Virus record (IMG/VR): IMGVR_UViG_3300012078_000128
Coordinates: 1 to 64,000 of that record
Reading direction: 5' to 3' (one strand)
Length of the DNA: 64,000 nucleotides
DNA from: a virus
A program made the position numbers and the translations under genes. The notes under the pieces are model-generated. The model had not been told where the DNA came from. It worked only from the letters and a program-made list of their open reading frames with translations, and searched no databases. Each line of letters opens with the position of its first letter. Position 1 is the first letter of the stretch. Below, one piece after another: positions 1,472 to 42,123 of the stretch.

Positions 1472-4141
1472 TCAGCTTAAAATTTCACCTTTTTTGAAGA
1501 TTTCTAACAAACTTTTAGGATGCGTTTCATTTAAAACTGACAAAACTCTGAATAGCAATCCATGTTCTATCGCAATTAGATGCTTCACAAGCCTAAACAT
1601 TGTATCTTCTTTTATTTTCAAACTCTTTATATAATTGAGGTGCTCTCTGAAAGTGGAGTCAATTAATCTGTCTCTTTCTTTCTTATTGGAGTATTTTTTT
1701 GCATATAAACTCTGTGTTTCTCTATCTAATAGACTTATTCTTTTCATAATATTGTCAAATTGTTTCTCATTAGCTCTTTGTCGGGGTTTCTCTAGTAACA
1801 GGCTATCTATTAAAATAGAACTTTCTCTGGTACTATGAATATTTTCTTCAAGGTTTTTAATTAAATAATCCATAGGACAGTCACACATCTTAATGTTTCT
1901 TTCAATAGTTTTACTTTGACTCACATATCTCCAAAACAATGGTTTTTTCTTTCTTTCTTTTATAGACGGGATACTTTCAACATTTTTAATCTCTTTTGTG
2001 ATATCTATTTCATAAAATTTCTTTGCCATATCAATAGCAATTCCACTGAGAATTGTCATAACATCTACTTTTTTTAGTAGATTTTCAACTTTATGTTCAT
2101 CAACACACAAATTATTTTTCAAATCCCAGTAATAGGACATACATAACTGTCCTAAGTTAACGACTTTCCCTATGTCTGTTTGACTATTAGATAGTTGGTT
2201 GTCAATATCATACATATCTTTTGTAGTAAGTTTGTATTTCTTCTTCTGTCCTTCTATATGGTTAATGCATACTTTGTAATTACCAAAGCATTCTTTTGCT
2301 AATGCTAGCAATTTGTCATTATCAAATAGAAGTACAGTATCTGAATCATAATCAGCCCCTGAAAGTATGTCTTGTAATGCAAAGTTAATTGCGTTTACGC
2401 ACACTATGTTAGGTGTTAAGTTGAAGTATTTCTCAATTTCTTTCACTTGTTTATTCTTCACTACCAACACATTAGAAGGGGAGGTGTTAGGATTTCTAAA
2501 GCCGACATACTCTTTGTCAAAATCGAACAAATTAGTATAAACTTCATTATTCTTAAGTGTGTGCTTATTTTCACTTATATCAAATTTACCGATAGCATGT
2601 TTTAGAAATTCTAAAGGATTCCCTAGCATTACACAGTAGTCACCATTCAGTTTGATTTTACCTTTTTTAGCGTGGCTTCTTTGTGAGTATATAAATTGCC
2701 TTCTTACTTTTTTAAAGTTATTTGTTCTAATAAAATCCTTATTGTGTTCATACAAATCTACATAGACCTTATTATTATTGATGATAGTCGCAGATTCTCT
2801 TAGTTTTTGAATGAAAAACAAATCATCATTTTTAAGTCTATCTATATATTCGTATTCGGTTTCTACTAATTTTTTAATATCTTTTTGTTTGATCGGTAGA
2901 CAGTTGACCATTTGGTAAGAGGTTTGCTGTAGCAATCTTTTATCTAAATCTCTGCCTATTTTAGACTCTTTCTCATTTTTACAAACACCAAACAAACTTC
3001 CATCTTCTTTTACTTTAGACCTCCAATAGTTCCACATATCACTATCATTTTTTGTTTTTAAAACGTGTGTAAATTTGAAGACTTTCACACTATTGGGAGT
3101 TGTGATGAGCTCGATATCTTTTGCGAATAACTTATTCCCGAATTTATCGGTTATTTGCCAATCATCATAGTTTATTTCTTTAGGACAATTATTCTTAAAA
3201 AACTCTTGAATGTTACAATTGAAAGCTGCTGACTTGAACATGTGATTCCTTAAAAGCTTCATTGAAGTACCGTCTTCAAAGTGCTTGGAGTCCAATAAAG
3301 ATTGCCCATCAAATAATGAGTTGCTGACAGTTGTTTTTTCTTTGAAGCTGTCCAAGAAACCATCTTTACCTTTTTTTACAACATTGCACACCTGTTCAAA
3401 TTCACTATCTACGTCCTCAATTAGTAAAATTTTATCTGGATTTAAGGTCATAGTAGATTCAATAGATGAACCAACAAGAGATTCATATGCGAGTAAACCA
3501 GCTAAATCAATATTCATTCCTTTTCTTATGGGTAAATTCAATCTTGACCACTTAATCATTTTGTTATATAGCTCTTTTTTGATAAACAAACATTGTCCCG
3601 TTCTACTTTTAGAAGATGACCGTTTATACGCAACGTACTCTGTAGCCTTTGTTTTACCTGTTTTTTCATTTGTTCGGGTAATTTTAAATCCCTCGGTATA
3701 TAAAATCTTTCTTAGATCAGAAGCACTGATTGAATTCCACGATTCATTATTTTCTTCTATGGTGACAAGAAAATCATTAAGTCTTCCTAATGATTCTGGA
3801 TTATTTTCATTATTTATTTTCTTTTTATAGACAATATTGCTTAATTCTTTTGCGGATTTCACTTTCTGTTTGAACTTCACATTAATAATATCGTCACTAA
3901 TATCTTTTTCTCTGTTTTTTAAGTACTTTACATTTAATCCTGAATTTCTAAGCTTAATTAATTCTAGACTGTGCGGTATCATTCCAACGTAGTCATAATT
4001 TATGTAGGAGTCTCGATGCATATGGTTGTAAATATCATTCGCTTCAAGGCTTAAAATATAAACTGGCTTCTCTCTGATCTCTTTTTTCACTAGGTTTATC
4101 CTTTCTCCTATTTCTTTTGATAAGCCTAAAGATATTATCAC
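1472..4141 (-). CDS. yonO: YonO-like single-subunit RNA polymerase (RdRP/two-barrel family)
   Basis: 889 aa ORF next to the HU gene, as yonN-yonO in SPbeta. Motif block GFRNPNTSPSNVLVV...ILSGADYDSDTVLLFDND resembles the R-x-P...SGGDxDGD catalytic block of QDE-1-type RdRPs/YonO; DYDSD is encoded at 2339-2353. The GTG at 4090 with SD GGAGAAAGG is a more likely start than 4141. Confidence 0.7.
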   Translation of the reverse strand: MIISLGLSKEIGERINLVKKEIREKPVYILSLEANDIYNHMHRDSYINYDYVGMIPHSLELIKLRNSGLNVKYLKNREKDISDDIINVKFKQKVKSAKELSNIVYKKKINNENNPESLGRLNDFLVTIEENNESWNSISASDLRKILYTEGFKITRTNEKTGKTKATEYVAYKRSSSKSRTGQCLFIKKELYNKMIKWSRLNLPIRKGMNIDLAGLLAYESLVGSSIESTMTLNPDKILLIEDVDSEFEQVCNVVKKGKDGFLDSFKEKTTVSNSLFDGQSLLDSKHFEDGTSMKLLRNHMFKSAAFNCNIQEFFKNNCPKEINYDDWQITDKFGNKLFAKDIELITTPNSVKVFKFTHVLKTKNDSDMWNYWRSKVKEDGSLFGVCKNEKESKIGRDLDKRLLQQTSYQMVNCLPIKQKDIKKLVETEYEYIDRLKNDDLFFIQKLRESATIINNNKVYVDLYEHNKDFIRTNNFKKVRRQFIYSQRSHAKKGKIKLNGDYCVMLGNPLEFLKHAIGKFDISENKHTLKNNEVYTNLFDFDKEYVGFRNPNTSPSNVLVVKNKQVKEIEKYFNLTPNIVCVNAINFALQDILSGADYDSDTVLLFDNDKLLALAKECFGNYKVCINHIEGQKKKYKLTTKDMYDIDNQLSNSQTDIGKVVNLGQLCMSYYWDLKNNLCVDEHKVENLLKKVDVMTILSGIAIDMAKKFYEIDITKEIKNVESIPSIKERKKKPLFWRYVSQSKTIERNIKMCDCPMDYLIKNLEENIHSTRESSILIDSLLLEKPRQRANEKQFDNIMKRISLLDRETQSLYAKKYSNKKERDRLIDSTFREHLNYIKSLKIKEDTMFRLVKHLIAIEHGLLFRVLSVLNETHPKSLLEIFKKGEILS

Positions 4142-4247
4142 AATCTGATTAAAGGTATTGCAGTTGAAATATGCAATTGTCTAATATATTCCTTGATATC
4201 TTTAGAAATCGTAAATCTACTTTAGCAATAAGTCTATTGGGTTTATC

Positions 4248-4427
4248 TCAATACCCACGTTTCATAGTATTTCTAGCTTCTTGTTTCGTTTCCTTATATG
4301 TATCCCACTCTTTATTAAAATAACCATGTGTCTGATAATGGATGTACAAGTCCATTTCTTCTTGTGTATTTACTTCATGTTCAATCCTATCCTCTAGATA
4401 CCATATAATCTGTTCGTTACTAACCAT
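4248..4427 (-). CDS. Small hypothetical protein (59 aa)
   Basis: Own translation MVSNEQIIWYLEDRIEHEV...KRGY. SD GAGGAG lies 9 nt upstream of the ATG. Below the ORF-track size cutoff. Confidence 0.45.
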   Translation of the reverse strand: MVSNEQIIWYLEDRIEHEVNTQEEMDLYIHYQTHGYFNKEWDTYKETKQEARNTMKRGY

Positions 4428-4601
4428 TTGTCCATTCTCCTCATCATCTCCCTATAACTGAATATCACATCTAATGCCATCTTAGTTACAGATTTTATAA
4501 TTATTCTCTTTTGTGTGTATTCTGTGCATGAGTGCACCTTACACCTTTATATTAGATTTTATAAGAGTATATGTAAAGTTGTTTTTATTAATTATTACCT
4601 A

Positions 4602-4630
4602 TTGACTTGTAGATTTAGCTTATATAGAAT
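4602..4630 (+). promoter_or_regulatory. Sigma-A-type promoter for the helicase gene
   Basis: TTGACT (4602-4607), 17-nt spacer, TAGAAT (4625-4630). Confidence 0.5.
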
Positions 4631-4675
4631 AATAACCAGTGTCAGACATTACCACAAACAAAAGGGGAATGCGAA

Positions 4676-6961
4676 TTGAAAAAAGACGAAGTAATCAAAG
4701 TTAACGCTAAGGTGAAGAAGAAATTGTATCCGAAAGGTAACGAACACAACAATTTTTTCATATATTCAATTTCACCTAATTCAAGCTCTCAAGCTATTGC
4801 TACGCTAAATGAAGAGTATAATAATTTCATTGTAAGTGGAAAGATGCAAGAACTAATTGAAGGAAATACATATGATATTGAAATTATTCCTAGCTGGTCT
4901 AAGAAACATGGAGACGGATATTCTGTTGTAAGTGTAACAAGTGAACGTCCTTCTTCCATAAAAGATCAACAAGAATACGTTCAAAGAGTAATTACAGATA
5001 AACAATACAAAGCTCTCATCAATAAATATCCTGAGCATCCATTGTTAGATATGTTTGAGAACGATGACATCGACTACTCAGATATTAAAGGTATTGGTAA
5101 AACAGCATACCAAAAAATAAAAGATAATTTATTTAATAATATGATAACTAATGATTTGGCGGCAAAGCTAAAAAACATGGGCGTTACTTTCACATCTGCG
5201 AAAGCATTGCTTAACCACTTTGGTAGCTCCGACTTAGTTATACAATTATCCAAAGATAATATTTATCGGTTCTGCGAAATAAAAGGGTTTGGATTTAAAA
5301 AGGTGGACGAGTACGCAATTTTAAGAGGGGATGACCCTATGAGTAAAGGGCGTATCCTAGCTGCTACAAAATATCTACTTGATCAAGATGAGCAAAAGGG
5401 ACACTCTTGGATGTTTAAACAAGAGTTACTTGGACAATTACATGAGTTACTCAAAATTGATGTATTAAAAATAGAAACAATTGTGAATAGCATTCAGAAT
5501 AAGGAATACAATTTATACGTTGATGATAAAAGGGTTGCTTCATATCCTAATTATAAATATGAATTAGCAATAAAAAAGAAGCTGATTCAAATGATTAACA
5601 CGCCATGTAAGACTAAAGGTATTGATTCTGATGAAGTAATTAAAACTTTAGAATTGAAGAACGGCTTCGAATATACTGATGAACAAAAGAATGCAATTCG
5701 ATTAGCTACTAATAACAACATACTGATATTAAATGGGCGAGCCGGTTCAGGAAAAACGTTTACAGTAAAAGGAATTCTTGAAGCTCTCAGAGACTATTCT
5801 TATCATTGCAGTGCATTATCAGGGAAAGCAGCCAAGGTCCTTTCATCTAACGGTCTAACAGCTTCCACTATTCATCGTATGCTTGGTATTAATAAAGAAA
5901 CTGGTGGATTTGCTCATAACGAAAAAATGCAACTACAGCATGATATTGTAATCTTAGACGAATCATCAATGGCTAATATCTATTTAATTTATTCAATTGT
6001 AATTGCACTCAAAGATGACGCTAAAATTATATTTGTAGGAGATAATGGTCAATTACCTTCAATTGGAGTGGGTTCAGTATTCGATGACTTGTTGTCTACT
6101 GGTGTATTACCTCAACAAGAACTCACCAAAATACACAGGCAAGCACAAAAGTCAGGTATATTGTCTGTTGCCAATAGAATACGTACAGGTAATCAAATCA
6201 ATAAACCTTATGAATTTGAGACACAAGTTTATGGAGAGCTTAAAGATATGGTTCTAATCCCTGTGCGAGATAAATCATACATACAGAGCGTGATTCTGTC
6301 TATCTGCGAAAAATACAAGCACAACGACCTATTTGAGTTTCAAGTGTTAACTACAATGAGAGAACGTGGAGATATATCAGTTAAAACACTGAATAATCTC
6401 CTACAACCAATATTTAACCCAAACACAAAAGAGGGGATTAAAAGTGGTTGGTACGAATATAAAGAAGGGGATAAGATCATTCAAAACGGGAACAACTATG
6501 AAGCTAAAATTGAAATTGACGAGTTTAATGAAATGTTGAATGACTCTTTTGAACAAGTAGAAGACGTGGAAGAAAAAGAATCTACAGTAGAAGTATTTAA
6601 CGGTACAATGGGAAAAATTATAAAGATTAACAAAGATAAAGAAAATCAAAACCTTAAAGTCTACATACAATTTGAAGATATTGATGAAGTTGTTGTCTAT
6701 GAGAGAACTGACTTGATGCAAATTGAATTAGCATATGCAATTACCACGCATAAAAGTCAGGGATCAACCTTGAAACACGTTCTATTTGCACTTGATTACG
6801 GCGCATATAAGTTACTTAGCAGAGAAATGGTATATACAGCAATCACAAGAGCGAGTAAAGGTTGCGTAGTAGTTGCGGAAAACAGGGCATTCCATCACGC
6901 TATAGAAAATACAACGGGTGATAACAGAAGAACGTTTTTGAAAGAGTTGTTAAATAGTTAA
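4676..6961 (+). CDS. RecD2-like SF1B DNA helicase
   Basis: 761 aa. Walker A LNGRAGSGKTF, Walker B VILDESSM, C-terminal AITTHKSQGST and TAITRA motifs of the RecD/TraA family. TTG start 8 nt after GGGG. Confidence 0.85.
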   Translation: MKKDEVIKVNAKVKKKLYPKGNEHNNFFIYSISPNSSSQAIATLNEEYNNFIVSGKMQELIEGNTYDIEIIPSWSKKHGDGYSVVSVTSERPSSIKDQQEYVQRVITDKQYKALINKYPEHPLLDMFENDDIDYSDIKGIGKTAYQKIKDNLFNNMITNDLAAKLKNMGVTFTSAKALLNHFGSSDLVIQLSKDNIYRFCEIKGFGFKKVDEYAILRGDDPMSKGRILAATKYLLDQDEQKGHSWMFKQELLGQLHELLKIDVLKIETIVNSIQNKEYNLYVDDKRVASYPNYKYELAIKKKLIQMINTPCKTKGIDSDEVIKTLELKNGFEYTDEQKNAIRLATNNNILILNGRAGSGKTFTVKGILEALRDYSYHCSALSGKAAKVLSSNGLTASTIHRMLGINKETGGFAHNEKMQLQHDIVILDESSMANIYLIYSIVIALKDDAKIIFVGDNGQLPSIGVGSVFDDLLSTGVLPQQELTKIHRQAQKSGILSVANRIRTGNQINKPYEFETQVYGELKDMVLIPVRDKSYIQSVILSICEKYKHNDLFEFQVLTTMRERGDISVKTLNNLLQPIFNPNTKEGIKSGWYEYKEGDKIIQNGNNYEAKIEIDEFNEMLNDSFEQVEDVEEKESTVEVFNGTMGKIIKINKDKENQNLKVYIQFEDIDEVVVYERTDLMQIELAYAITTHKSQGSTLKHVLFALDYGAYKLLSREMVYTAITRASKGCVVVAENRAFHHAIENTTGDNRRTFLKELLNS

Positions 6962-14450: not shown

Positions 14451-16086
14451 TATATAGAGTGTGGCTATAATGGAGATACAGCATTGGTATTATTCAAAAG
14501 AATCCCCCCCTCCTATATAGTTTATATAACTGATTAACATGTTGGATATCTGTGAAAGCAGACAATCCTATGTGTTATTTTTTTATCCATAAAACATCGA
14601 GAACGATTTTAAGAGGTTTCATGAGAAAATAAAAGAAATTGGATTATATATAGATGAAATATGGGTTAGAGTGACTTAAATTGGTTGCTTTGACCCATAT
14701 TTTTGTTGGGTTATCGTAAAAGTAGCATAACATTGAGATTTAAGAATGAAAAACAATAAAAGATAGAGAACATGATGAAAATATTTAAAGATGTGGAGTG
14801 TTAAAACGCAGGAGAAATAGTGGTTTGTATCGCAAGCACACGATACGGAAAACGATACAAATAAAGTGAAAAATGGTCTACTGCAAGATAGTCAGCTAGG
14901 CAGTATATCAACCTATAATATGGAAGTTGTTGATGTTTTTATGCCCCCCATAATGACCGAATAATATATGTTATACAGTCATTTATAAATATCTATCTAT
15001 ACAGGGCACACCTTTGCCAACTAACACAGATTTGTAAGAGTGGGGGGAATACGATGCAAGTGTTCGCTTGCATATAATAATCGCATGACAAGAAGGACTC
15101 TAGCTGAAAGTATTACATATCATTCATATCACCAACATCATCATACCTATCTAACTCACATCCTCATACCACCACATCAACATAATACAATATACGAATC
15201 TGTATATCGTATATCCATAATCTACATAACTCCTTTTCTCTATCATCATGTCTGCTATCCTTTGTATATCTAACATCACCTACACAAACACTTCACATAG
15301 TCTATATACTCAAATCTTCTCATATAACATACATAAGGAACTTTTCTTTCTCTCTATACAATCATACTAGGCAACCTGATATGAAGTCTCTAAGCGTCTC
15401 TAAGCAATCCATTTTTCAAATATCAAATATCAAAACTTCATAACAAAAGAATATATAATATATAAATCCAATAATATTCTCTAACACTAGACTGTGTTGT
15501 AAAAAAGTATACTCAAATATAAACAATGTGAAGGCTAACATAATATCATGACTAACCAATATGTAAACCAACGATCCGAATCAACTCAGAACTCAATTAA
15601 ACAAGCACTAACTATATCTTTAATTAATAAAGGAAACATCATCTGAACTTAGTGAAGCAGTACAGAACGCTACTGAATCCAAACTATCCGACATTACAGA
15701 CATAATAGACATCATGCCATATATCGAATATCCATAAAATAAATAATCAAAAATTAAAAATAGATAATGGTATATTCTTTTTTCATTTTCAAGTATTCCT
15801 TTAATTATCTAATGTAAATCTATATAGATCTGCATCATCGTCATAACTACACGTCACACACTAATCAACCACACAATATATACTAGACTAACACACACTA
15901 ATCAAAGCATGTGTCACACTATGCACATGTCATCAATGCATATGCTATACACACATCACATACAAACATATAAGCTATGCTATATACCATGCTAGGTCAT
16001 CTTACTATCATACATAAGCCACACTAATACTTTATACTAACAAACAAAATAACCAAAAGAAAATATATAATATATGAATATAATAC

Positions 16087-34499: not shown

Positions 34500-35189
34500 T
34501 CACTTCTTCTTGTAATGTGTTAATGATATTGGTTTTTCATTTGGAATATCTATAAATGTTCTATTTTTCATATTAAATTTCTTTGCTTGGTTCACATGGC
34601 TGCCTATTGGTGACAGATGATATGACAAGTTCTCAACACTGAAGAAATTTTTATTTCGATCTCCCTTACAAAGATAAACCGATTCTGTAGCTTTCTCTAA
34701 TTCGTCATGAACCTTCATAATCGTTTGTTCATATAGAGGTTTATCAGTTATATTTTTAGGAATTAATCCTGTACATAAGAAAATACACCCGTTTGACTCT
34801 TGATTTGTACGAATTGCTCTTTCAATCGCAAGGCTATTTGATTTCATTGTCATTAGGTGTGTATTATTATGATTGGCATTAAGATCATCTAGAATTAGAT
34901 ATAGATCAGAAGACGTAGCTTCATAATAAGGATGAACGTTAACAACAGTAAAAGAACCAATTTTAAGATGCTTTAAATCATGATAAGCGATATAAGCACA
35001 ACTATTAACAGTTTTATCTGATTCATTTTCAGTGGCATGACTCGGATTCATTAAGATGAACAATGCGTTAGCTGTATAGTTATTGTCTAACTTACCAGTG
35101 AGGACTGACCTGAAGAAGTACGATGTGCGAGGAATTTTTCTATAATCACATTTGGTAATGTTTGATACATATGAAGGATATTTAACCAA
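34500..35189 (-). CDS. DUF1643-like protein (UDG-superfamily fold suspected)
   Basis: Strong SD GAGGAGGTG with TTG start. FILMNPSHATENESDKTVNSC resembles the DUF1643 MLNPS-x-AD...D-x-T block. Confidence 0.45.
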   Translation of the reverse strand: MVKYPSYVSNITKCDYRKIPRTSYFFRSVLTGKLDNNYTANALFILMNPSHATENESDKTVNSCAYIAYHDLKHLKIGSFTVVNVHPYYEATSSDLYLILDDLNANHNNTHLMTMKSNSLAIERAIRTNQESNGCIFLCTGLIPKNITDKPLYEQTIMKVHDELEKATESVYLCKGDRNKNFFSVENLSYHLSPIGSHVNQAKKFNMKNRTFIDIPNEKPISLTHYKKK

Positions 35190-35290
35190 GATGACACCTC
35201 CTCAAAAATAAAAGTTAATAATATTATAGTTGGACTGTAAGATAATTGGAAGTGAAGTGCTTATTGATAAATAAATTCAATTAACTGGAC

Positions 35291-35707
35291 GTGAGAGTAT
35301 TGATTGAAGCATACAGAGAATTCTTACAGAAGCAAGACGTACTTCCAATGGAAAACTGGAATGTATTTATATCTGAACATCAAATACCTATGCAGCCTAA
35401 TGTGAAAAATCATCCTCACACTATGATAATGAGGCAACAAGGCAAAGATACTGATGGTGGAGTATACGTTTATTTTGATAATGAAACTTGTTTATATATT
35501 GGGGAATCTAAAGTTTTAGGTAGCAGATTTAAGGATCATTATAATGCTTCTTGGAAAACAAACCATAAGTTACATCAATTCTTTAGTCGATATAGAAAGC
35601 CGTTAACAGTAAGATGGATAAAAATTGAAAACGTCTTTGACAGGCGAACAATAGAAGCAATGTTGACTAGGATTTATAAACCAACCTATATTGACTTTAA
35701 AACATAA
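35291..35707 (+). CDS. GIY-YIG nuclease-domain protein
   Basis: GGVYVYFDNETCLYIGESKVLGSRFKDHY fits the GIY...YIG...R...H pattern. Start uncertain (no clear SD). Confidence 0.5.
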   Translation: MRVLIEAYREFLQKQDVLPMENWNVFISEHQIPMQPNVKNHPHTMIMRQQGKDTDGGVYVYFDNETCLYIGESKVLGSRFKDHYNASWKTNHKLHQFFSRYRKPLTVRWIKIENVFDRRTIEAMLTRIYKPTYIDFKT

Positions 35708-36051: not shown

Positions 36052-36852
36052 ATGATAAATTGCCATTGTCATACTGACTATTCTAACATCAGACTTTTAG
36101 ATGCTTTGCAATCTGTAGAAGAATTAATTATAACATCACATGAAATGGGCATGAAAGGCGTGGCGATTACGGAGCACGAAAGCGTTAGCTCTCATCCGAA
36201 AGCTTTAAGGACGGTAAGAGAACTGAAGAAAAAGAAAATAATCCCCGAAGATTTCACTCTTATTCTTGGAAACGAGCTATACTTATGCCCCGATTTAGAA
36301 TCAGTAAAAGATAATTATAAATCAGGAGAGACTAAGTTTCCCCACTTCTTAGTTTTAAGCAAAGACCTAATCGGACACGAACAGTTACGAACTTTGAGTA
36401 GTCGTGCATGGTCAAGAAGTTTTTACACAGGTCTTATGGAAAGAGTCCCTACACTTTATTCAGACTTAGAGGAAGTAGTTAAACCAAACAAAGGACATCT
36501 TATTGCCTCGTCTGCTTGCTTAGGAAGTGCAGTCAATATTCACTTGTTAGCAATAAAAGAAGCAGAAAAAACCAGTAACCACCCTAAAGCTAATTACCAT
36601 AAACAAGAATTACATAAATTCATTCTATGGTGCATTGATATATTTGGTCAAGATCACTTCTTTATTGAGTTGCAACCTGCATTAAGCGAAGAGCAAGTTT
36701 ACTGTAATAAGAAGCTTGTTGATATTGCTGACCATTATGGACTAAAACGAATAGTAACAACAGATGCTCACTATGGACGACCAGAAGACAGAGACATCCA
36801 TGAAGCTTTTCTTAATGCCAAGCAAGGCGAGAGAGAGGTAGCGCAATTTTAT
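36052..36852 (+). CDS. DNA polymerase III alpha (DnaE-type, YorL-like), exon 1 (PHP domain)
   Basis: INCHCHTDYSNIRLLDA, AITEHES and VTTDAHY are PHP motifs. Polymerase-like sequence ends at ...GEREVAQFY. The ORF-track tail to 36906 reads into the intron. Boundary is +/- about 10 nt. Confidence 0.8.
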
Positions 36853-37310
36853 AGGTTTTGTGAGCGAGAAAACCCACTATTTTTATGGTGGGATGTTAGC
36901 CCATAAATAGACTGTAAGAATGTAGGGAAACTTGCATTTAGCGACTATGTAATTACTCATATAGTCCAACTAAGAAACTGAATTGCTGGAAACTCGTAAA
37001 GCTAGCTAAACTACAACATAGGGATATTTAAACCCAAGTGTGAATGTTGCGAAAGCAGAAAAAATTAGTTAGATGACATAAGGTTAAATCCTACGTGTTG
37101 AACAATCGAAAATCAGCAGCCAAGCCTAGAAATAGGAAGGTTCAACGACTATTCCTCGTGAAGGAAGTACACACAAGCGTGTGGAAGTGGTTTCGCCGTA
37201 CTGGGTAAGGCCAACGGATAAGATATAGTCTGTGCTTGTGCGAAAGCACAAGAAGTTCATAAGAGAACTGCATAGGGATTAGCGAACTTATGTGAACATA
37301 CTCTACATGA
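36853..37310 (+). ncRNA. Group I intron catalytic core (candidate)
   Basis: AAGATATAGTC (37220-37230) matches the J8/7-P7 signature, and AGACT at 36909-36913 can pair with it. GAAA-capped stems at 37048-37057, 37125-37136 and 37235-37252. Further hairpins at 36873-36892 and 36942-36965. No ORF. Confidence 0.6.
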
Positions 37311-37383
37311 TAAAGTCTAAAAAGTTTTAATATTTGTGTATCAAAGTATTGATTTCATACACAACTTGATGTACAATAAGTAT

Positions 37384-37785
37384 ATGAGTAACGAATACAG
37401 ATATTCAAAAACAACTGTATCGTTAATCAATTACCACTTTGTTTTTTGCCCAAGATATCGTCGGAAAATATTTGAGAATTCCGAAGTTGATACTAGATTT
37501 AAAGCCATTGTTTCAGAAATATGTTCTGATAACGAGTGGACAATCCTAGCAATAGAAACAGATAAAGATCACTGTCATCTTTTTGTGAATGTGCAACCTA
37601 CATTTTCGCCCTCTGACATAATGAAGACGATAAAAGGTATATCTTCACGAGAATTAAGACAAGAATTTGAACATCTAAGTAAAATGCCTAGTGTTTGGAC
37701 GCGATCATTCTTTGTTTCAACTGCTGGAAATGTATCTAGTGAAACCATCAAGCGATATGTTGAGAATCAAAGAACAAGATATTGA
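37384..37785 (+). CDS. tnpA: IS200/IS605 Y1 (HUH) transposase TnpA
   Basis: MSNEYRYSKTTVSLINYHFVFCPRYRRKIF, HUH motif HCHLFV, catalytic-Tyr region SSETIKRYVENQ. Confidence 0.9.
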   Translation: MSNEYRYSKTTVSLINYHFVFCPRYRRKIFENSEVDTRFKAIVSEICSDNEWTILAIETDKDHCHLFVNVQPTFSPSDIMKTIKGISSRELRQEFEHLSKMPSVWTRSFFVSTAGNVSSETIKRYVENQRTRY

Positions 37786-37807
37786 TTACGTTAAGGAGGT
37801 GACAGAA

Positions 37808-38926
37808 ATGAAGAAAGCTCATAAAATCAGAATTTATCCGAATACAAGACAGCAAATTCAAATTCAAAAAACATTTGGATGTGTAAGATTCTACTGGAAT
37901 TTTCTATTGGATCAACGAATGACAAACTACAAAAACAAACAAGAAAACAAAAACTATCAAGAAGATAAAACGACATATGCAGCTTTAAAGAAACAAGAAA
38001 CTTATTCTTGGCTAAAAGAAGTGGAAGCTCAACCATTAAGTCAAATTACAATGGATTTGAGAAAAGCATATAAAAATACGTTCACATCTGGATTCGGATT
38101 CCCTAAGTTTAAGAGTAAAAAACACTCGAAAAAAGCATATAGAACAGCTGTGGGGATGAAGGTAAATGGTAGGTATTGTTATGTTTCAAAAGTAGGTTGG
38201 ATAAAAATGGCTGAAACATTACGCTTCAATGGTAAATTGATGAATGTAACAATCAGTCAAACGAAATCCAGAAAATATTTCGCTACTTTGTTAGTAGACA
38301 CAGAGAATTTAACAAAAGAAAAAGTTGAAAATACAATCGGATTAGATTTAGGGCTAACTCATTTCTGTATAACTTCCACAGGAGAAAAGATTGATAATAA
38401 AAAATTCTATCGTTCTCTTGAAAAACGTTTGGTAATTGAACAACGTAAACTATCTAAACGTTTAGAAGTAGCTAAAAAACATAATCGTAAGCTAGATGAT
38501 TGTAAAAACTACCAAAAACAAAGAGTTAAAGTTGCTCGTATACATGAACAGATTGCTAACCAAAGAAACAACTTTTTACACCAACTATCTTCAAAAATAA
38601 CTGACGAGAACCAAGTCATTTGTATTGAAGATTTGATTGTAAAAGAAATGGTTAAAAATTGTACACTATCGAAATCAATTTCTGATGTATCTTGGAGTGA
38701 ATTTGTTAGACAATTACAATACAAGTCAGACTGGAAAGGTCGCACCTTAATTAAGGTAGATAGATTCTTCCCTAGTTCACAAAAATGTTCTTCATGTGGC
38801 CAGATTGATGGCAAGAAAGCATTAGACATTCGTGAATGGATTTGTTCAAATTGTGGCATAGTTCATGATAGAGATATTAATGCAAGTATAAATATTAAAA
38901 CCGAAGGACTTTCGGGGATAGCTTAG
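37808..38926 (+). CDS. tnpB: TnpB (OrfB_IS605) RNA-guided RuvC nuclease
   Basis: The ATG at 37808 follows AAGGAGGTG. RuvC-I IGLDLGLTHF, RuvC-II ICIEDL, zinc finger CSSCG...CSNCG, RuvC-III DRDINASINI. Confidence 0.9.
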   Translation: MKKAHKIRIYPNTRQQIQIQKTFGCVRFYWNFLLDQRMTNYKNKQENKNYQEDKTTYAALKKQETYSWLKEVEAQPLSQITMDLRKAYKNTFTSGFGFPKFKSKKHSKKAYRTAVGMKVNGRYCYVSKVGWIKMAETLRFNGKLMNVTISQTKSRKYFATLLVDTENLTKEKVENTIGLDLGLTHFCITSTGEKIDNKKFYRSLEKRLVIEQRKLSKRLEVAKKHNRKLDDCKNYQKQRVKVARIHEQIANQRNNFLHQLSSKITDENQVICIEDLIVKEMVKNCTLSKSISDVSWSEFVRQLQYKSDWKGRTLIKVDRFFPSSQKCSSCGQIDGKKALDIREWICSNCGIVHDRDINASINIKTEGLSGIA

Positions 38927-38962
38927 TAAATTTAGTGCCGTTAGGTGCTATTACCTAAGAAC

Positions 38963-38983
38963 CCCACGACTTTAGTCGTGTGG
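38963..38983 (+). repeat. IS right-end subterminal hairpin (also the 3' end of the predicted omega-RNA scaffold)
   Basis: CCACGAC-TTTA-GTCGTG(T)GG. A related CCCAC...GTGGG hairpin sits about 20 nt inside the left end (36873-36892). Confidence 0.55.
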
Positions 38984-38991
38984 AGTGTCAG

Positions 38992-41900
38992 GAAGCTTGC
39001 TTTATTCAAAAGGAAGAAGAAATTTATGAACGCATGAATTATCTACCTAAAGAAATTATCATGGAAGCTATTGAAAACACGCTGCTTATTGGCAAGATGT
39101 GCGAAGATTACACTATTGAGCAGCCAACTATTATTCCAAAGATTGAACTTCCTGAATTCGAAATAGAACATCTATTCAAACCTGCTTACGAGAAATATGA
39201 ATACATTGAGAAAACGGCTAATAGTAAATATAAGCAAGATAGGTACGCTATGTATCTCATTGAAAAAGGTTTTCGGGACAAATTAATGAAGCCAGAATTA
39301 ACACATGAAAAATTCCATCAAATTCTTGCTCGAATTAATGTTGAATTAGGTGAGCTTTGGCAACTTAGCGAAGAGCTTAATCAACGGATGACTGACTACT
39401 ACATTTCAGTCAGGCAATTAATATCCATAATTTGGAAAGATGACTGTGGGAATAGTATCGTTCCAGCAGGTAGAGGAAGTTCTTCAGGATTTATTTTGAA
39501 TTTTTTATGGGACATAACTCAGATTAATCCTTTGGAGTATGGTGTAGAAATTCCACATTGGCGACACTTGCACCATAGTCGCCCTGATATTGGTGCATTA
39601 GATATTGACATTGATACTGAATCGAACAAAAGACAAAGAATACTTAAATCACTAAAAAGAAAGTTTGGCGAAGAAAGAATTCTACAGGTTGCTACGTTTG
39701 GCACACAAGGCTCACGTTCTGCCATCCTAACAGCTTGCAGGGGGCTTGGGTTAGATAGTGATATTGGTCTTCATCTTAGTGGCTTAATCCCATTTGAACG
39801 TGGACAAAACTGGAGCATTAAAGATTGTCTGTATGGGAATACAGAAAAAAATAGAAAGCCAGTTAAGGAATTCATAAATGAAATAGATAAATATCCTAAG
39901 CTACAGTCCATGATTGAAAAAGTTGAGGGTAAGATTGATAAACGAAGCATCCATGCAGGTGGAATTATTCTTTTCCCTGAAAACTATGTAAAGTCTAATG
40001 CTATGATGAAAGCACCGAATGGTACACCTATTACTCAATTTTCATTAGATGACTGCCAAAGTGTAGGAAATATAAAATATGATCTCTTAACAATTGAGGG
40101 AGCAGATCGAATAAGAGCTACTTTCGATTTGTTACTAAAACATGGTGAAATTGAATGGAAAGGTTCTTTGAAAGCAACTTATGATTATTACCTACATCCA
40201 GATAACATTGATATGGAAAATCCTGAGCTTTACAAAATGCTCGGTAGTGGCGAAGTAGCTTCACTTTTTCAGTTCAGCACGGAACAGGGTATCCAAGCAG
40301 CGACAAAAACAAAGCCTACTAATCTAATTGAGACAGCAGCAGCTAACAGTCTTATGCGCTTAATGTCTGATTCAGGTGGAGAACAACCAATAGACACATT
40401 CGTAAGATATAAAAATGATATTAGCTTGTGGTATGAAGAAATGAAGAGGCATGGATTAAATGAAAATGAAATTTTAGTCATGGAAGAATACTTATTACCA
40501 CTTTCAGGAATTTCCGATACACAGGAAGTTGTTATGCGACTTGCTATGGATAATCGGATAGCTGGTTTTGATATAATTGAGTCCAATAAATTGCGGAAAT
40601 TAATCGCTAAGCGAGATGAAAAACTCTTAGAAGTAATGGAAAATGAATTTTATTCTAAAGGGCTCTCTCTAGGAAATAGAAAAGAAATTCTTTCGTATGT
40701 TTGGGATGTTCAAATCAAAAGAATGCTTGGTTATGCGTTTAGTATCTGTCACACCATTTCATATTCGATAATTGCTTTACAAGAACTTACTCTTAACTAT
40801 AACTATAATCCTATCTATTGGCAGACTGCATGTTTGTCAGTTAACTCTGGTAGCCTAGAAGTTGATGAAGATACTAAATCATCCACAGGAGCTTACGGGA
40901 AGGTGGCTTCAGCTATTTCTGAAATACAGCAATCGGGAGTTACAGTTTCTTTGCCTGACATCAATAAAGCAGAGTACAGCTTCACTCCAGATGTTGAAAA
41001 CAATAAAATTATATTTGGTTTACGCGGTTTAATTGGTGTCGGAGACTCCGTTGTTGATACTATAATCCAAAACAGGCCGTACACATCATTTGAGGACTTT
41101 TATTCACGTCTATATACTACCAAACTAGTTACCAATTCACATATGGTACAGCTAATTAAAGCTGGCTGCTTTGACGAATTTGATGACCGTACGACAACTA
41201 TGCAGAAATATGTTAATCTCACATTTTCACCAAATAAGAAACTTTCTACTGCTAACCTAAAGAATTTAATCAATCTGAATCTTATTCCAAATAAATATGC
41301 CCTACATATTAGATATTATAAATTTAAAGAACATATTTATTCCCGTTCAATTGGCAAATTGAATGATCGCAAAACTAAAAACCGACTATTCCTTTTAGAT
41401 AATGTATCAACTGAATTTCTAATTGAACATTTCTCAGAGGATTCTATTGTAGATTATCGTGATGGGCAACCTATTATTCTTGAAGCATTGTTTGATAAAG
41501 AATACGACAAGAAAATGGAAGTTATTAAGGAGTGGTTAAAAGAAGATTCAACTCTACACATATATAACAATAAACTTAGAGAACAACATTGGATTGATAC
41601 AACTAAAGGTATTGATAATGTTTCTGCTTGGGAAATGTCGAGTTTATCCTATTATAATTCACCGCATGAATTAGCTAATGTAGATAAAGTTAAATATGGT
41701 ATCAAAGACTTCTACTCACTTCCTGAAAATCCTCTAGTAGTTAATGAATACGAATGGGGCAATCGTAAAATGAAGGAGTTTGATATTTGTCGCATTGCTG
41801 GAACTGTATTGGACAAGGATAAAAATAAACATACTGTTACAATATTGACTACAGATGGAGTTGTCACATGCAAATTTTATGGTAATCAATACAGTAGCTT

Positions 41901-42123
41901 GGACAGACAATTATCAGTAAAAGGCTCAGATGGGAAGAAGCAAGTAATTGAAAAAGGCTGGTTTGTACGTGGCAACCTTGTAATTCTTACAGGTTATAGA
42001 CGTGGCAATCAATTTATACCTAAACGTTACAAAAATTCCGTATATAATACTACAATTGCTTTGATTGACAACGTATTAGACAATGGAGAACTTAGCCTTA
42101 TAACTGAACGAGCAGAAATATAA
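38992..42123 (+). CDS. DNA polymerase III alpha (YorL-like), exon 2
   Basis: Polymerase-like sequence resumes at EACFIQKEEEIY and continues for more than 1000 aa (fingers/palm regions, C-terminal OB-like). The ORF-track GTG at 38980 lies inside the IS right-end hairpin. Confidence 0.8.
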   Translation, partial: EACFIQKEEEIYERMNYLPKEIIMEAIENTLLIGKMCEDYTIEQPTIIPKIELPEFEIEHLFKPAYEKYEYIEKTANSKYKQDRYAMYLIEKGFRDKLMKPELTHEKFHQILARINVELGELWQLSEELNQRMTDYYISVRQLISIIWKDDCGNSIVPAGRGSSSGFILNFLWDITQINPLEYGVEIPHWRHLHHSRPDIGALDIDIDTESNKRQRILKSLKRKFGEERILQVATFGTQGSRSAILTACRGLGLDSDIGLHLSGLIPFERGQNWSIKDCLYGNTEKNRKPVKEFINEIDKYPKLQSMIEKVEGKIDKRSIHAGGIILFPENYVKSNAMMKAPNGTPITQFSLDDCQSVGNIKYDLLTIEGADRIRATFDLLLKHGEIEWKGSLKATYDYYLHPDNIDMENPELYKMLGSGEVASLFQFSTEQGIQAATKTKPTNLIETAAANSLMRLMSDSGGEQPIDTFVRYKNDISLWYEEMKRHGLNENEILVMEEYLLPLSGISDTQEVVMRLAMDNRIAGFDIIESNKLRKLIAKRDEKLLEVMENEFYSKGLSLGNRKEILSYVWDVQIKRMLGYAFSICHTISYSIIALQELTLNYNYNPIYWQTACLSVNSGSLEVDEDTKSSTGAYGKVASAISEIQQSGVTVSLPDINKAEYSFTPDVENNKIIFGLRGLIGVGDSVVDTIIQNRPYTSFEDFYSRLYTTKLVTNSHMVQLIKAGCFDEFDDRTTTMQKYVNLTFSPNKKLSTANLKNLINLNLIPNKYALHIRYYKFKEHIYSRSIGKLNDRKTKNRLFLLDNVSTEFLIEHFSEDSIVDYRDGQPIILEALFDKEYDKKMEVIKEWLKEDSTLHIYNNKLREQHWIDTTKGIDNVSAWEMSSLSYYNSPHELANVDKVKYGIKDFYSLPENPLVVNEYEWGNRKMKEFDICRIAGTVLDKDKNKHTVTILTTDGVVTCKFYGNQYSSLDRQLSVKGSDGKKQVIEKGWFVRGNLVILTGYRRGNQFIPKRYKNSVYNTTIALIDNVLDNGELSLITERAEI

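Follow-up and report, generated by a model that had tools for sequence, protein, structure and literature searches.

A probable group A IStron inside a replicative polymerase gene from an SPbeta-like phage or prophage

In the 64,000 nucleotides (nt) analysed here (positions 1 to 64,000 of the IMG/VR virus record IMGVR_UViG_3300012078_000128, referred to as the window), a phage DNA polymerase gene of the yorL/dnaE type is divided by 2139 nt of other DNA, which raises the question of what this DNA is and how a complete polymerase could be made across it. An original prediction, made from the letters of the window, held that the gene is split by an IStron, that is, a group I ribozyme fused to the tnpA and tnpB genes of an IS200/IS605 insertion sequence (IS). 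The features it named are present at the positions given, and its reading is supported. The available data are best explained by a group A IStron, apparently intact and belonging to the EfISt1 lineage of Enterococcus, that transposed into the yorL/dnaE-type polymerase gene of an SPbeta-like phage or prophage, a reading that is assigned a probability of roughly 0.88. The only YorL-type replicative polymerase in the window could then be made solely if a 2.1-kb transposon leaves the mRNA.

The polymerase gene and its junction

The host gene, the insertion target and the element itself are arranged as follows:

36052..36852, + strand: first exon of the phage DNA polymerase gene, which is yorL/dnaE-like; 267 codons with a PHP domain
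36848..36852, + strand: TTTAT insertion target and predicted target-adjacent motif (TAM) of TnpB; the last four bases are the exon strand of ribozyme helix P1, and U36852 is the proposed 5' splice-site U
36853..38991, + strand: the whole IStron, transposon and putative intron alike (2139 nt; placed by the homology limits and the restored polymerase open reading frame)
38992..42123, + strand: second exon of the same gene, with 1043 codons and a stop (Pfam DNA_pol3_alpha, finger and HHH_6)

As had been predicted, the upstream open reading frame (ORF) ceases to resemble a polymerase after GEREVAQFY (36852), which is borne out both by Pfam (PHP domain, E 1e-21) and by alignment to YorL of SPbeta, with which exon 1 shares 65% amino-acid (aa) identity over residues 1-267; 18 unrelated codons then lead to a TAA at 36904-36906, and the unspliced reading frame yields a 284-aa product. 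Polymerase sequence resumes at 38992 with EACFIQKEEEIY, where the prediction had placed it in a compatible frame; the frame is identical to that of exon 1, and exon 2 runs colinear with residues 268-1305 of YorL. When 36852 is joined to 38992, the resulting 1310-aa protein has 56% identity to SPbeta YorL (1305 aa) and no gap at the junction (GEREVAQFY|EACFIQ versus GEREVDSFY|EACFVQ), and the uninterrupted SPbeta gene reads TTTTAT|GAAGCC at the equivalent codon. The junction is thereby fixed exactly to the codon, and neither exon contains a stop or frameshift across the 1310 codons. The closest homologue of the joined polymerase is merely 62-63% identical, and the relatives that carry names belong to Bacillaceae and Paenibacillaceae.

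Gene callers annotate the locus as two ORFs of 284 and 1047 aa, the lone candidate start for the exon-2 ORF being a GTG that lies within the right-end hairpin of the element. The PHP and Pol III alpha domains are found in a single protein of 1196-1350 aa in 119 of the 120 best homologues, and the sole split entry is the window's own exon-2 ORF; because of this, the PHP and polymerase parts are not normally separate genes, an arrangement that would not fit the original prediction.

Ribozyme, insertion sequence genes and element ends

Between the two exons, the 5' part of the element carries the putative ribozyme and the 3' part the two IS genes:

36853..37299, + strand: IA2-type group I ribozyme spanning P1 to P9.2, with a GAACAU motif (37294-37299) at its end
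36912..36919, + strand: internal guide sequence CUGUAAGA; G36914 pairs with U36852; conserved in all copies
36920-36937, 37048-37057 and 37235-37252, + strand: three GAAA-capped stems, seen in the sequence
37147..37230, + strand: catalytic core; P7 (37147-37151/37226-37230) encloses P7.1, P7.2, the P3 3' strand and P8
37152-37166, + strand: P7.1, with compensatory pairs
37170-37183, + strand: P7.2, with compensatory pairs
37190-37194, + strand: P3 3' strand, invariant
37196-37217, + strand: P8, with compensatory pairs
37220-37230, + strand: J8/7-P7, core motif AAGAUAUAGUC
37254-37269, + strand: P9.1, invariant
37271-37292, + strand: P9.2, with compensatory pairs
37381..37785, + strand: tnpA, Y1 (HUH) transposase of 134 aa; PF01797, E 3e-41, full-length match
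37808..38926, + strand: tnpB, predicted RNA-guided endonuclease of 372 aa; three Pfam TnpB domains

When 36840-37300 was searched with RF00028 (Intron_gpI), a match was obtained at 36877-37252 with 60.8 bits (E 4e-15), above the gathering threshold of 50 bits, and a 78% identical relative (locus L001; labels of this kind denote loci retrieved in the analysis) scored 66.4 bits. No group I match was returned for RF00028 on the whole window at gathering thresholds or for Rfam on 36700-39200 at E up to 10; since the same model gives 60.8 bits on the 461-nt stretch, these negatives are filter artefacts, probably caused by speed filters together with the large P1, P5 and P7 insertions. The whole-window scan alone would thus have wrongly suggested that the locus lacks the predicted ribozyme, and routine scans may systematically detect too few group I introns and IStrons in phage windows, with phage IStrons probably under-annotated. 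An nhmmer profile built without the window sequence found 36971-37298 as its sole match in the window (E 5e-104).

An IA2-type structure was drawn by hand and evaluated on 11 family members with about 80% pairwise identity. It is made up of P1, whose loop is extended, P2, P2.1, P3-P6 (with a large P5 extension), P7, P7.1, P7.2, P8, P9, P9.1 and P9.2, and in the window copy all proposed helices form with a single A x C mismatch (36863/36901, in the peripheral helix P1a). Standard pairs make up 98.1% of cells across the 11 members, a percentage inflated by the structure having been derived partly from the sequences tested. This inflation does not extend to the comparison of compensatory changes with controls: such changes are present at 55 of 139 pairs, against 3-5 when partners were slid by 1-3 columns, and none of 500 shuffles reached these values. 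Compensatory pairs occur in P4, P5, P6, P8, P7.1, P7.2, P9.2 and the peripheral helices; P3, P7, P9.1 and most of P1 are invariant and so neither support nor contradict the structure.

The U36852.G36914 wobble at the proposed 5' splice site is invariant in the 11 copies, and the terminal intron base is G38991. Rfam's own placement of P1 at UUUUUAUGG (36881-36889) was rejected, as covariation assigns this stretch to the left-end hairpin; the true P1 uses exon UUAU. The three GAAA-capped stems of the original prediction were found, and the J8/7-P7 signature on which it drew (AAGATATAGTC) is present at 37220-37230, but is not significant by itself, with 5 sites at one mismatch or fewer against 2.5 expected in the window. 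Similar sites at 605, 15610 and 62949, considered as signs of a second intron in the window, do not exceed chance, and Rfam on 15250-15950 was negative. The non-coding 5' part, put at about 460 nt in the prediction, extends over 528 nt to the tnpA ATG.

Published group A IStrons combine an IA2 ribozyme bearing P7.1, P7.2 and P9.0-P9.2 with an IS part that follows P9.2 and a GAAC-type motif (PMC4227781), and the predicted IStron layout agrees with this definition, tnpA and tnpB both lying downstream of P9.2 in the window element. The motif after P9.2 is GAACAU, one base from published variants; it is GAACAA in 9 of 10 relatives and GAACGA in L012. No convincing P10 pairing of exon 2 with the guide sequence was found, which is expected given that the flanks of the element vary.

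Database comparison places tnpA and tnpB in the IS200/IS605 type, and both the Y1 transposase and TnpB are intact, as had been claimed. The TnpA translation contains the HCH motif and the C-terminal Tyr and aligns without gaps to relatives at 80-87% aa identity. TnpB matches the ISDra2 TnpB structures 8bf8/8ex9/8h1j (E 4e-67), its top match in the PDB being 9yyg, an AI-designed TnpB-like nuclease (E 5e-75), with which the DLG, EDL and HDRD motifs (the RuvC D-E-D triad) and the CxxC...CxxC of the zinc finger line up residue by residue. Against five relatives TnpB is gapless at about 80% aa identity, and the differences fall mostly at third codon positions (e.g., 58/38/168 for positions 1/2/3), which argues that tnpB is under purifying selection. 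Both genes look intact and the IS genes look functional. An exact-protein look-up with the chosen tnpA and tnpB starts gave no record; Logan gene calls use different starts.

The ends of the element, where transposon signals and proposed splice sites coincide, contain the following features:

36873..36892, + strand: left-end subterminal hairpin (CCCACUAU/AUGGUGGG), inside the P1 loop and enclosed by helix 36860-36865/36899-36904
37298..37310, + strand: 5' strand of a long-range closing stem with 38976-38988, starting just after GAAC
38890..38991, + strand: right end and predicted omega-RNA scaffold (predicted fold -29.4 kcal/mol); G38991 is the terminal G of the putative intron
38901-38915, 38922-38926/38955-38959 and 38934-38939/38944-38949, + strand: right-end stems of the predicted fold
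38963-38983, + strand: terminal (subterminal) hairpin (-11.8 kcal/mol), followed by AGUGUCAG
38992..39007, + strand: predicted TnpB guide/target GAAGCTTGCTTTATTC, the first exon-2 bases, according to the IS605/IStron mechanism

Similarity to related copies is bounded by 36852|36853 and 38991|38992, the very edges that had been predicted, and of the flanking bases at most 1-3 still match relatives, either as part of the TTAT motif that the copies have in common or by chance. The element is preceded by TTTAT and terminates in GTCAG (TTTAT|AGG... and ...GTCAG|GAA), and NTTAT precedes 11 of 11 aligned copies. Group A IStrons are reported to insert 3' of TTGAT, ATTAT or TTTAT and to have TCAG as their 3' end (PMC4227781). 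The left-end hairpin shows compensatory changes at three pairs, and its 5' foot (GAAAACCCAC) is similar to the right-end hairpin's foot (GAACCCCAC); by analogy with IS608 and ISDra2, it would be a candidate TnpA recognition hairpin.

At the right end, the predicted subterminal hairpin was located at 38963-38983, the region is strongly conserved among copies, and the stem 38934-38939/38944-38949 has compensatory changes in 4 of its 6 pairs. By analogy with characterised IStrons, the right end may act as an omega-RNA scaffold (PMC10690162, PMC13521648). Omega-RNA extends about 15 nt beyond the right end (PMC13565253), and the 3' flanks, which occupy the guide position, differ in every copy. The closing stem forms 13 of 13 pairs in the window (-17.8 kcal/mol), with tnpA and tnpB contained in its loop. 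It forms 9-13 pairs in the 11 copies, with a 9-pair core in all and variation limited to Y (C/U) opposite G, but this is a measure of consistency and not of covariation, as the exact right-end pattern was used to retrieve family members. Its right-end bases double as the 3' arm of the terminal hairpin, and in IS605 elements the terminal hairpin serves TnpA as its site and also forms the final stem of the TnpB omega-RNA. In Clostridium botulinum IStrons a conflict between intron and guide RNA has been shown experimentally (PMC10690162, PMC13521648), and the layout in the window matches it by analogy.

Relatives, proposed mechanism and alternatives

The full length (100%) of the window element is matched at 78.5-78.8% identity by copies on E. 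faecium plasmids, which are, from species and length, probably EfISt1, a group A IStron of 2140 nt in this species (Tourasse et al. 2014, PMC4227781). The window element is thus probably a divergent member (about 79% identical) of the EfISt1 lineage. The right-end 24-mer was found at 3 viral and 15 genomic loci, mostly in Enterococcus species with one in Paenibacillus nuruki, and the whole element occurs at 78-81% identity after NTTAT in unrelated genes of Enterococcus species, P. nuruki, viral contigs and E. faecium plasmids. All full copies have NTTAT upstream with differing flanks (at least 12 different flanks at family level). Virtual splicing restores the ORF of a terminase large subunit (L005), a DnaG-type primase (L007) and a SpaA-domain surface protein (L001), and, judged by eye, ORFs resembling a response regulator (L014) and an ABC-type ATPase (L022). 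The presence of the whole unit at unrelated sites, with host ORFs restored, indicates that ribozyme and IS move as one unit. The window itself holds a single copy by blastn and nhmmer, and there is no terminator-like site on the + strand inside the element.

Several relatives depart from this plan, in a series of decay described in the literature. Four copies retain tnpB and ribozyme with tnpA absent; L012 has deletions in P2 and P8, parts of which are gone; L014 carries a 53-nt insertion within the P1 loop; and L015 (E. durans), which matches only from element position 511, the ribozyme part and a recognisable left end being absent, is probably truncated. A variant of about 3.6 kb (L006, IMGVR_UViG_3300044557_000281), which lies on one 90-kb viral contig together with the primase IStron L007, ends at the right-end pattern and agrees with the family in its left end, in the 5' portion of the ribozyme as far as the P5 extension, and in its last ~110 nt; its interior is unrelated and without tnpB, it follows CTTAT in a weakly integrase-like ORF, and it may be a nested or recombined element. 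Separately, Enterococcus phage phiEF17H (L003, 2942-3252) and seven more Enterococcus phage records contain an unannotated group I intron of about 310-360 nt that divides a ribonucleotide reductase gene into two annotated coding sequences. This intron scores 41.9 bits on RF00028 (E 7e-08), under the gathering score of 50, and its P5 extension is about 82% identical over ~95 nt to window 36981-37075, which suggests a recent common ancestor for the plain phage introns and the IStron ribozyme.

Around the interrupted gene, neighbouring ORFs match DnaB-like helicase, primase and RecJ-like exonuclease PHROGs in SPbeta gene order, together with a 3D-domain protein, and a ribonucleotide reductase, thymidylate synthase and dihydrofolate reductase (DHFR) module lies further along; an identical arrangement is found on a 117-kb Logan contig from SRR6448759. 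The RecJ-like and polymerase genes, adjacent in SPbeta as yorK and yorL, are here separated by two extra ORFs (34500-35707), one encoding DUF1643 (34500-35189, minus strand) and one a free-standing GIY-YIG domain (35291-35707; Pfam E 3e-5, barely above threshold), which may be a free-standing homing endonuclease adjoining an intron-bearing gene.

These observations can be assembled into a model in which TnpA would have inserted the single-stranded element 3' of TTTAT, and polymerase pre-mRNA would be transcribed through the whole element. Exon UUAU may then pair with the guide GUAA(GA), with U36852.G36914 at the 5' splice site, and the 13-bp stem 37298-37310/38976-38988 would loop out tnpA and tnpB and bring G38991 (GUCAG|) to the core. 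Two transesterifications would join ...FY to EACF... in the 1310-aa polymerase, the ligated exons reading ...CAATTTTAT|GAAGCTTGC.... The same 3' sequence could alternatively fold as the terminal hairpin of the TnpB omega-RNA, such that splicing and guide-RNA formation would be mutually exclusive. TnpB with its omega-RNA could cut the IStron-free allele (TTTAT followed by GAAGCTTGCTTTATTC), recombination then restoring or spreading the element, and precise excision by TnpA would regenerate TTTTATGAAGCT. Of this, the analysis shows the boundaries, the restored ORF, the ribozyme match with its covariation, the intact tnpA and tnpB and the copies at many unrelated sites, whereas splicing, transposition and RNA-guided cleavage are inferred.

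A number of points weigh against this interpretation. The case for splicing is built from sequence; the helix P1a contains its A x C mismatch; GAACAU matches none of the five published variants of the motif after P9.2; and the pairing percentage is inflated, as noted above. With no evident P10, the choice of the 3' splice site would rest on the modelled closing stem and the terminal G. In addition, recent mobility in this phage lineage is undocumented, as an exact 24-mer across the empty site of an IStron-free allele had 0 matches in viral_contigs and metagenome_contigs.

The mismatch in P1a, together with the visible decay of some relatives (the partial loss of P2 and P8 in L012, the four copies without tnpA), would also be compatible with a dead insertion in a decaying prophage, whose ribozyme no longer splices and whose split polymerase is a pseudogene. 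This is considered unlikely, as the exons are open over 1310 codons and colinear with YorL, neither the core helices nor the junction motifs are damaged, both IS genes have their full length, and the nearby replication and nucleotide-metabolism genes are intact ORFs. That the gene callers see two ORFs could further be taken to mean that the polymerase is naturally split, with PHP and polymerase products assembling and the element merely lying between their genes. However, the break falls inside a conserved block (GEREVxxFY|EACF), the two domains share one chain in nearly all of the best homologues, and the second ORF could start only at the GTG inside the right-end hairpin, which together make a natural split very improbable.

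Just as little probability is attached to two successive events, in which an ordinary IS200/IS605 element inserted into a group I intron already present in the polymerase gene, ribozyme and IS not being one mobile unit. Plain group I introns with a related P5 extension do occur in phage genes, as in phiEF17H, and the P9/P9.1 motif is common to many introns without TnpB downstream (182 of 237 sites among the matches listed). Yet the complete unit, from left-end hairpin to right end and with identical ends, is present in at least 10 unrelated genes, the transposon left end is also the 5' splice site, and none of the 120 best YorL homologues is split at this position.

An apparently intact IStron that splices from the polymerase mRNA is therefore preferred, and it invites the more speculative proposal of an RNA-guided homing intron, in which TnpB guided by exon 2 would cut IStron-free alleles of near-identical phages during co-infection or superinfection of a lysogen, with repair converting them. 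This proposal is considered rather unlikely. If true, homing conversion would resemble marker exclusion, competition between splicing and omega-RNA over 38976-38988 would tie polymerase output to TnpB activity, and the element would correspond, in reprogrammable form, to the introns with homing endonucleases in T4, SPO1 and SPbeta; the recurrence of the lineage in essential phage genes (polymerase, terminase, primase) would also be accounted for. The defined TAM and guide make TnpB homing between co-infecting phages testable, and the polymerase IStron would provide a natural setting in which the efficiency of splicing could be cleanly tested while selection is strong.

Occurrence in phages and comparison with known systems

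The original prediction considered an IStron in a phage core gene to be unusual. IStrons in phage genomes have been known since 2014 (CbISt3/4, phage c-st; PMC4227781), and close relatives of the window element interrupt a terminase and a primase gene in IMG/VR contigs, such that the claim holds only in part; no IStron was found in a DNA polymerase gene, whether among the interrupted genes in the 2014 survey tables (PMC4227781) or among the fetched loci. The literature search returned no description of an IStron in a phage polymerase gene, and no motif-bearing intron was found in YorL-like genes among the fetched loci. With the window element, a phage replication gene would join the hosts of group A (IS605-type) IStrons, the host gene being new and the kind of element known. 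Six further loci (L027, L031, L113, L126, L136 and L161) were rejected as IStron-split polymerases, their motif-bearing introns lying outside the polymerase genes. On other viral contigs, the YorL-like polymerase gene of L136 has a 1.2-kb gap near residues 452-456 (about 3670-4900), and that of L031 is in three pieces with spacers of ~270 and ~190 nt (1526-1799, 2980-3172); these interruptions may be other introns, inteins or frameshifts.

The 21-nt P9/P9.1 motif AAGAAGTTCATNAGAGAACTG is present at more than 119 loci in each of the viral (IMG/VR) and metagenomic collections. A TnpB homologue lies directly downstream at 55 of the 237 sites among the matches listed (~23%), 17 of the 55 in IMG/VR contigs; among the viral-contig sites listed, this is about 1 in 7. 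ORFs upstream of the more distant TnpB-carrying elements, whose boundaries are candidates, include portal, lytic tail and tape-measure proteins, and it is suggested that IStrons in phages are commoner than the searched literature indicates. Upstream of the motif sites (L024-L260), many ORFs have ...FD or ...ID as their last residues, which fits a TTGAT target.

The phage IStrons already on record, CbISt3 and CbISt4 of the C. botulinum phages c-st and D-1873, resemble the window element in residing in phage genomes, and for CboIStron splicing, cleavage by TnpB/omega-RNA and the antagonism of intron and guide RNA have been shown experimentally (PMC4227781, PMC10690162). However, these belong to group B, with an IS607 part, a serine-recombinase TnpA, a GG-type target (TGGG) and a CGG end, and CbISt3 and CbISt4 interrupt hypothetical or sensor-kinase genes and no replication gene (PMC4227781). 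The original prediction had cited CdISt1 and BcISt1 as the known architecture, which is correct as to architecture, although the closest named relative is EfISt1 of Enterococcus faecium. EfISt1 shares the layout of IA2 ribozyme, tnpA and tnpB, the T-rich pentanucleotide target, the TCAG end and nearly the length (2140 versus 2139 nt), but differs by enough (~79% nucleotide and ~80% TnpB aa identity) to make the window element a distinct sublineage, and its host genes are on enterococcal chromosomes and plasmids, whereas here it is the polymerase gene of an SPbeta-like phage. CdISt1 of Clostridioides difficile, the group A prototype, likewise combines IS200/IS605, Y1 TnpA and TnpB with an IA2 ribozyme whose splice sites are the transposon ends, but its target is TTGAT rather than (N)TTAT, it resides in bacterial genes including tcdA, and it is too distant to surface in DNA searches with the window element. 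Classical group I introns of phages carry homing endonucleases, as in the SPO1-type DNA polymerase and the SPbeta bnrdE/bnrdF genes. In these, and in the plain intron of phiEF17H, homing is protein-guided and confined to one cognate site, whereas the window element carries a transposase and a predicted RNA-guided nuclease, for which any suitable NTTAT may serve.

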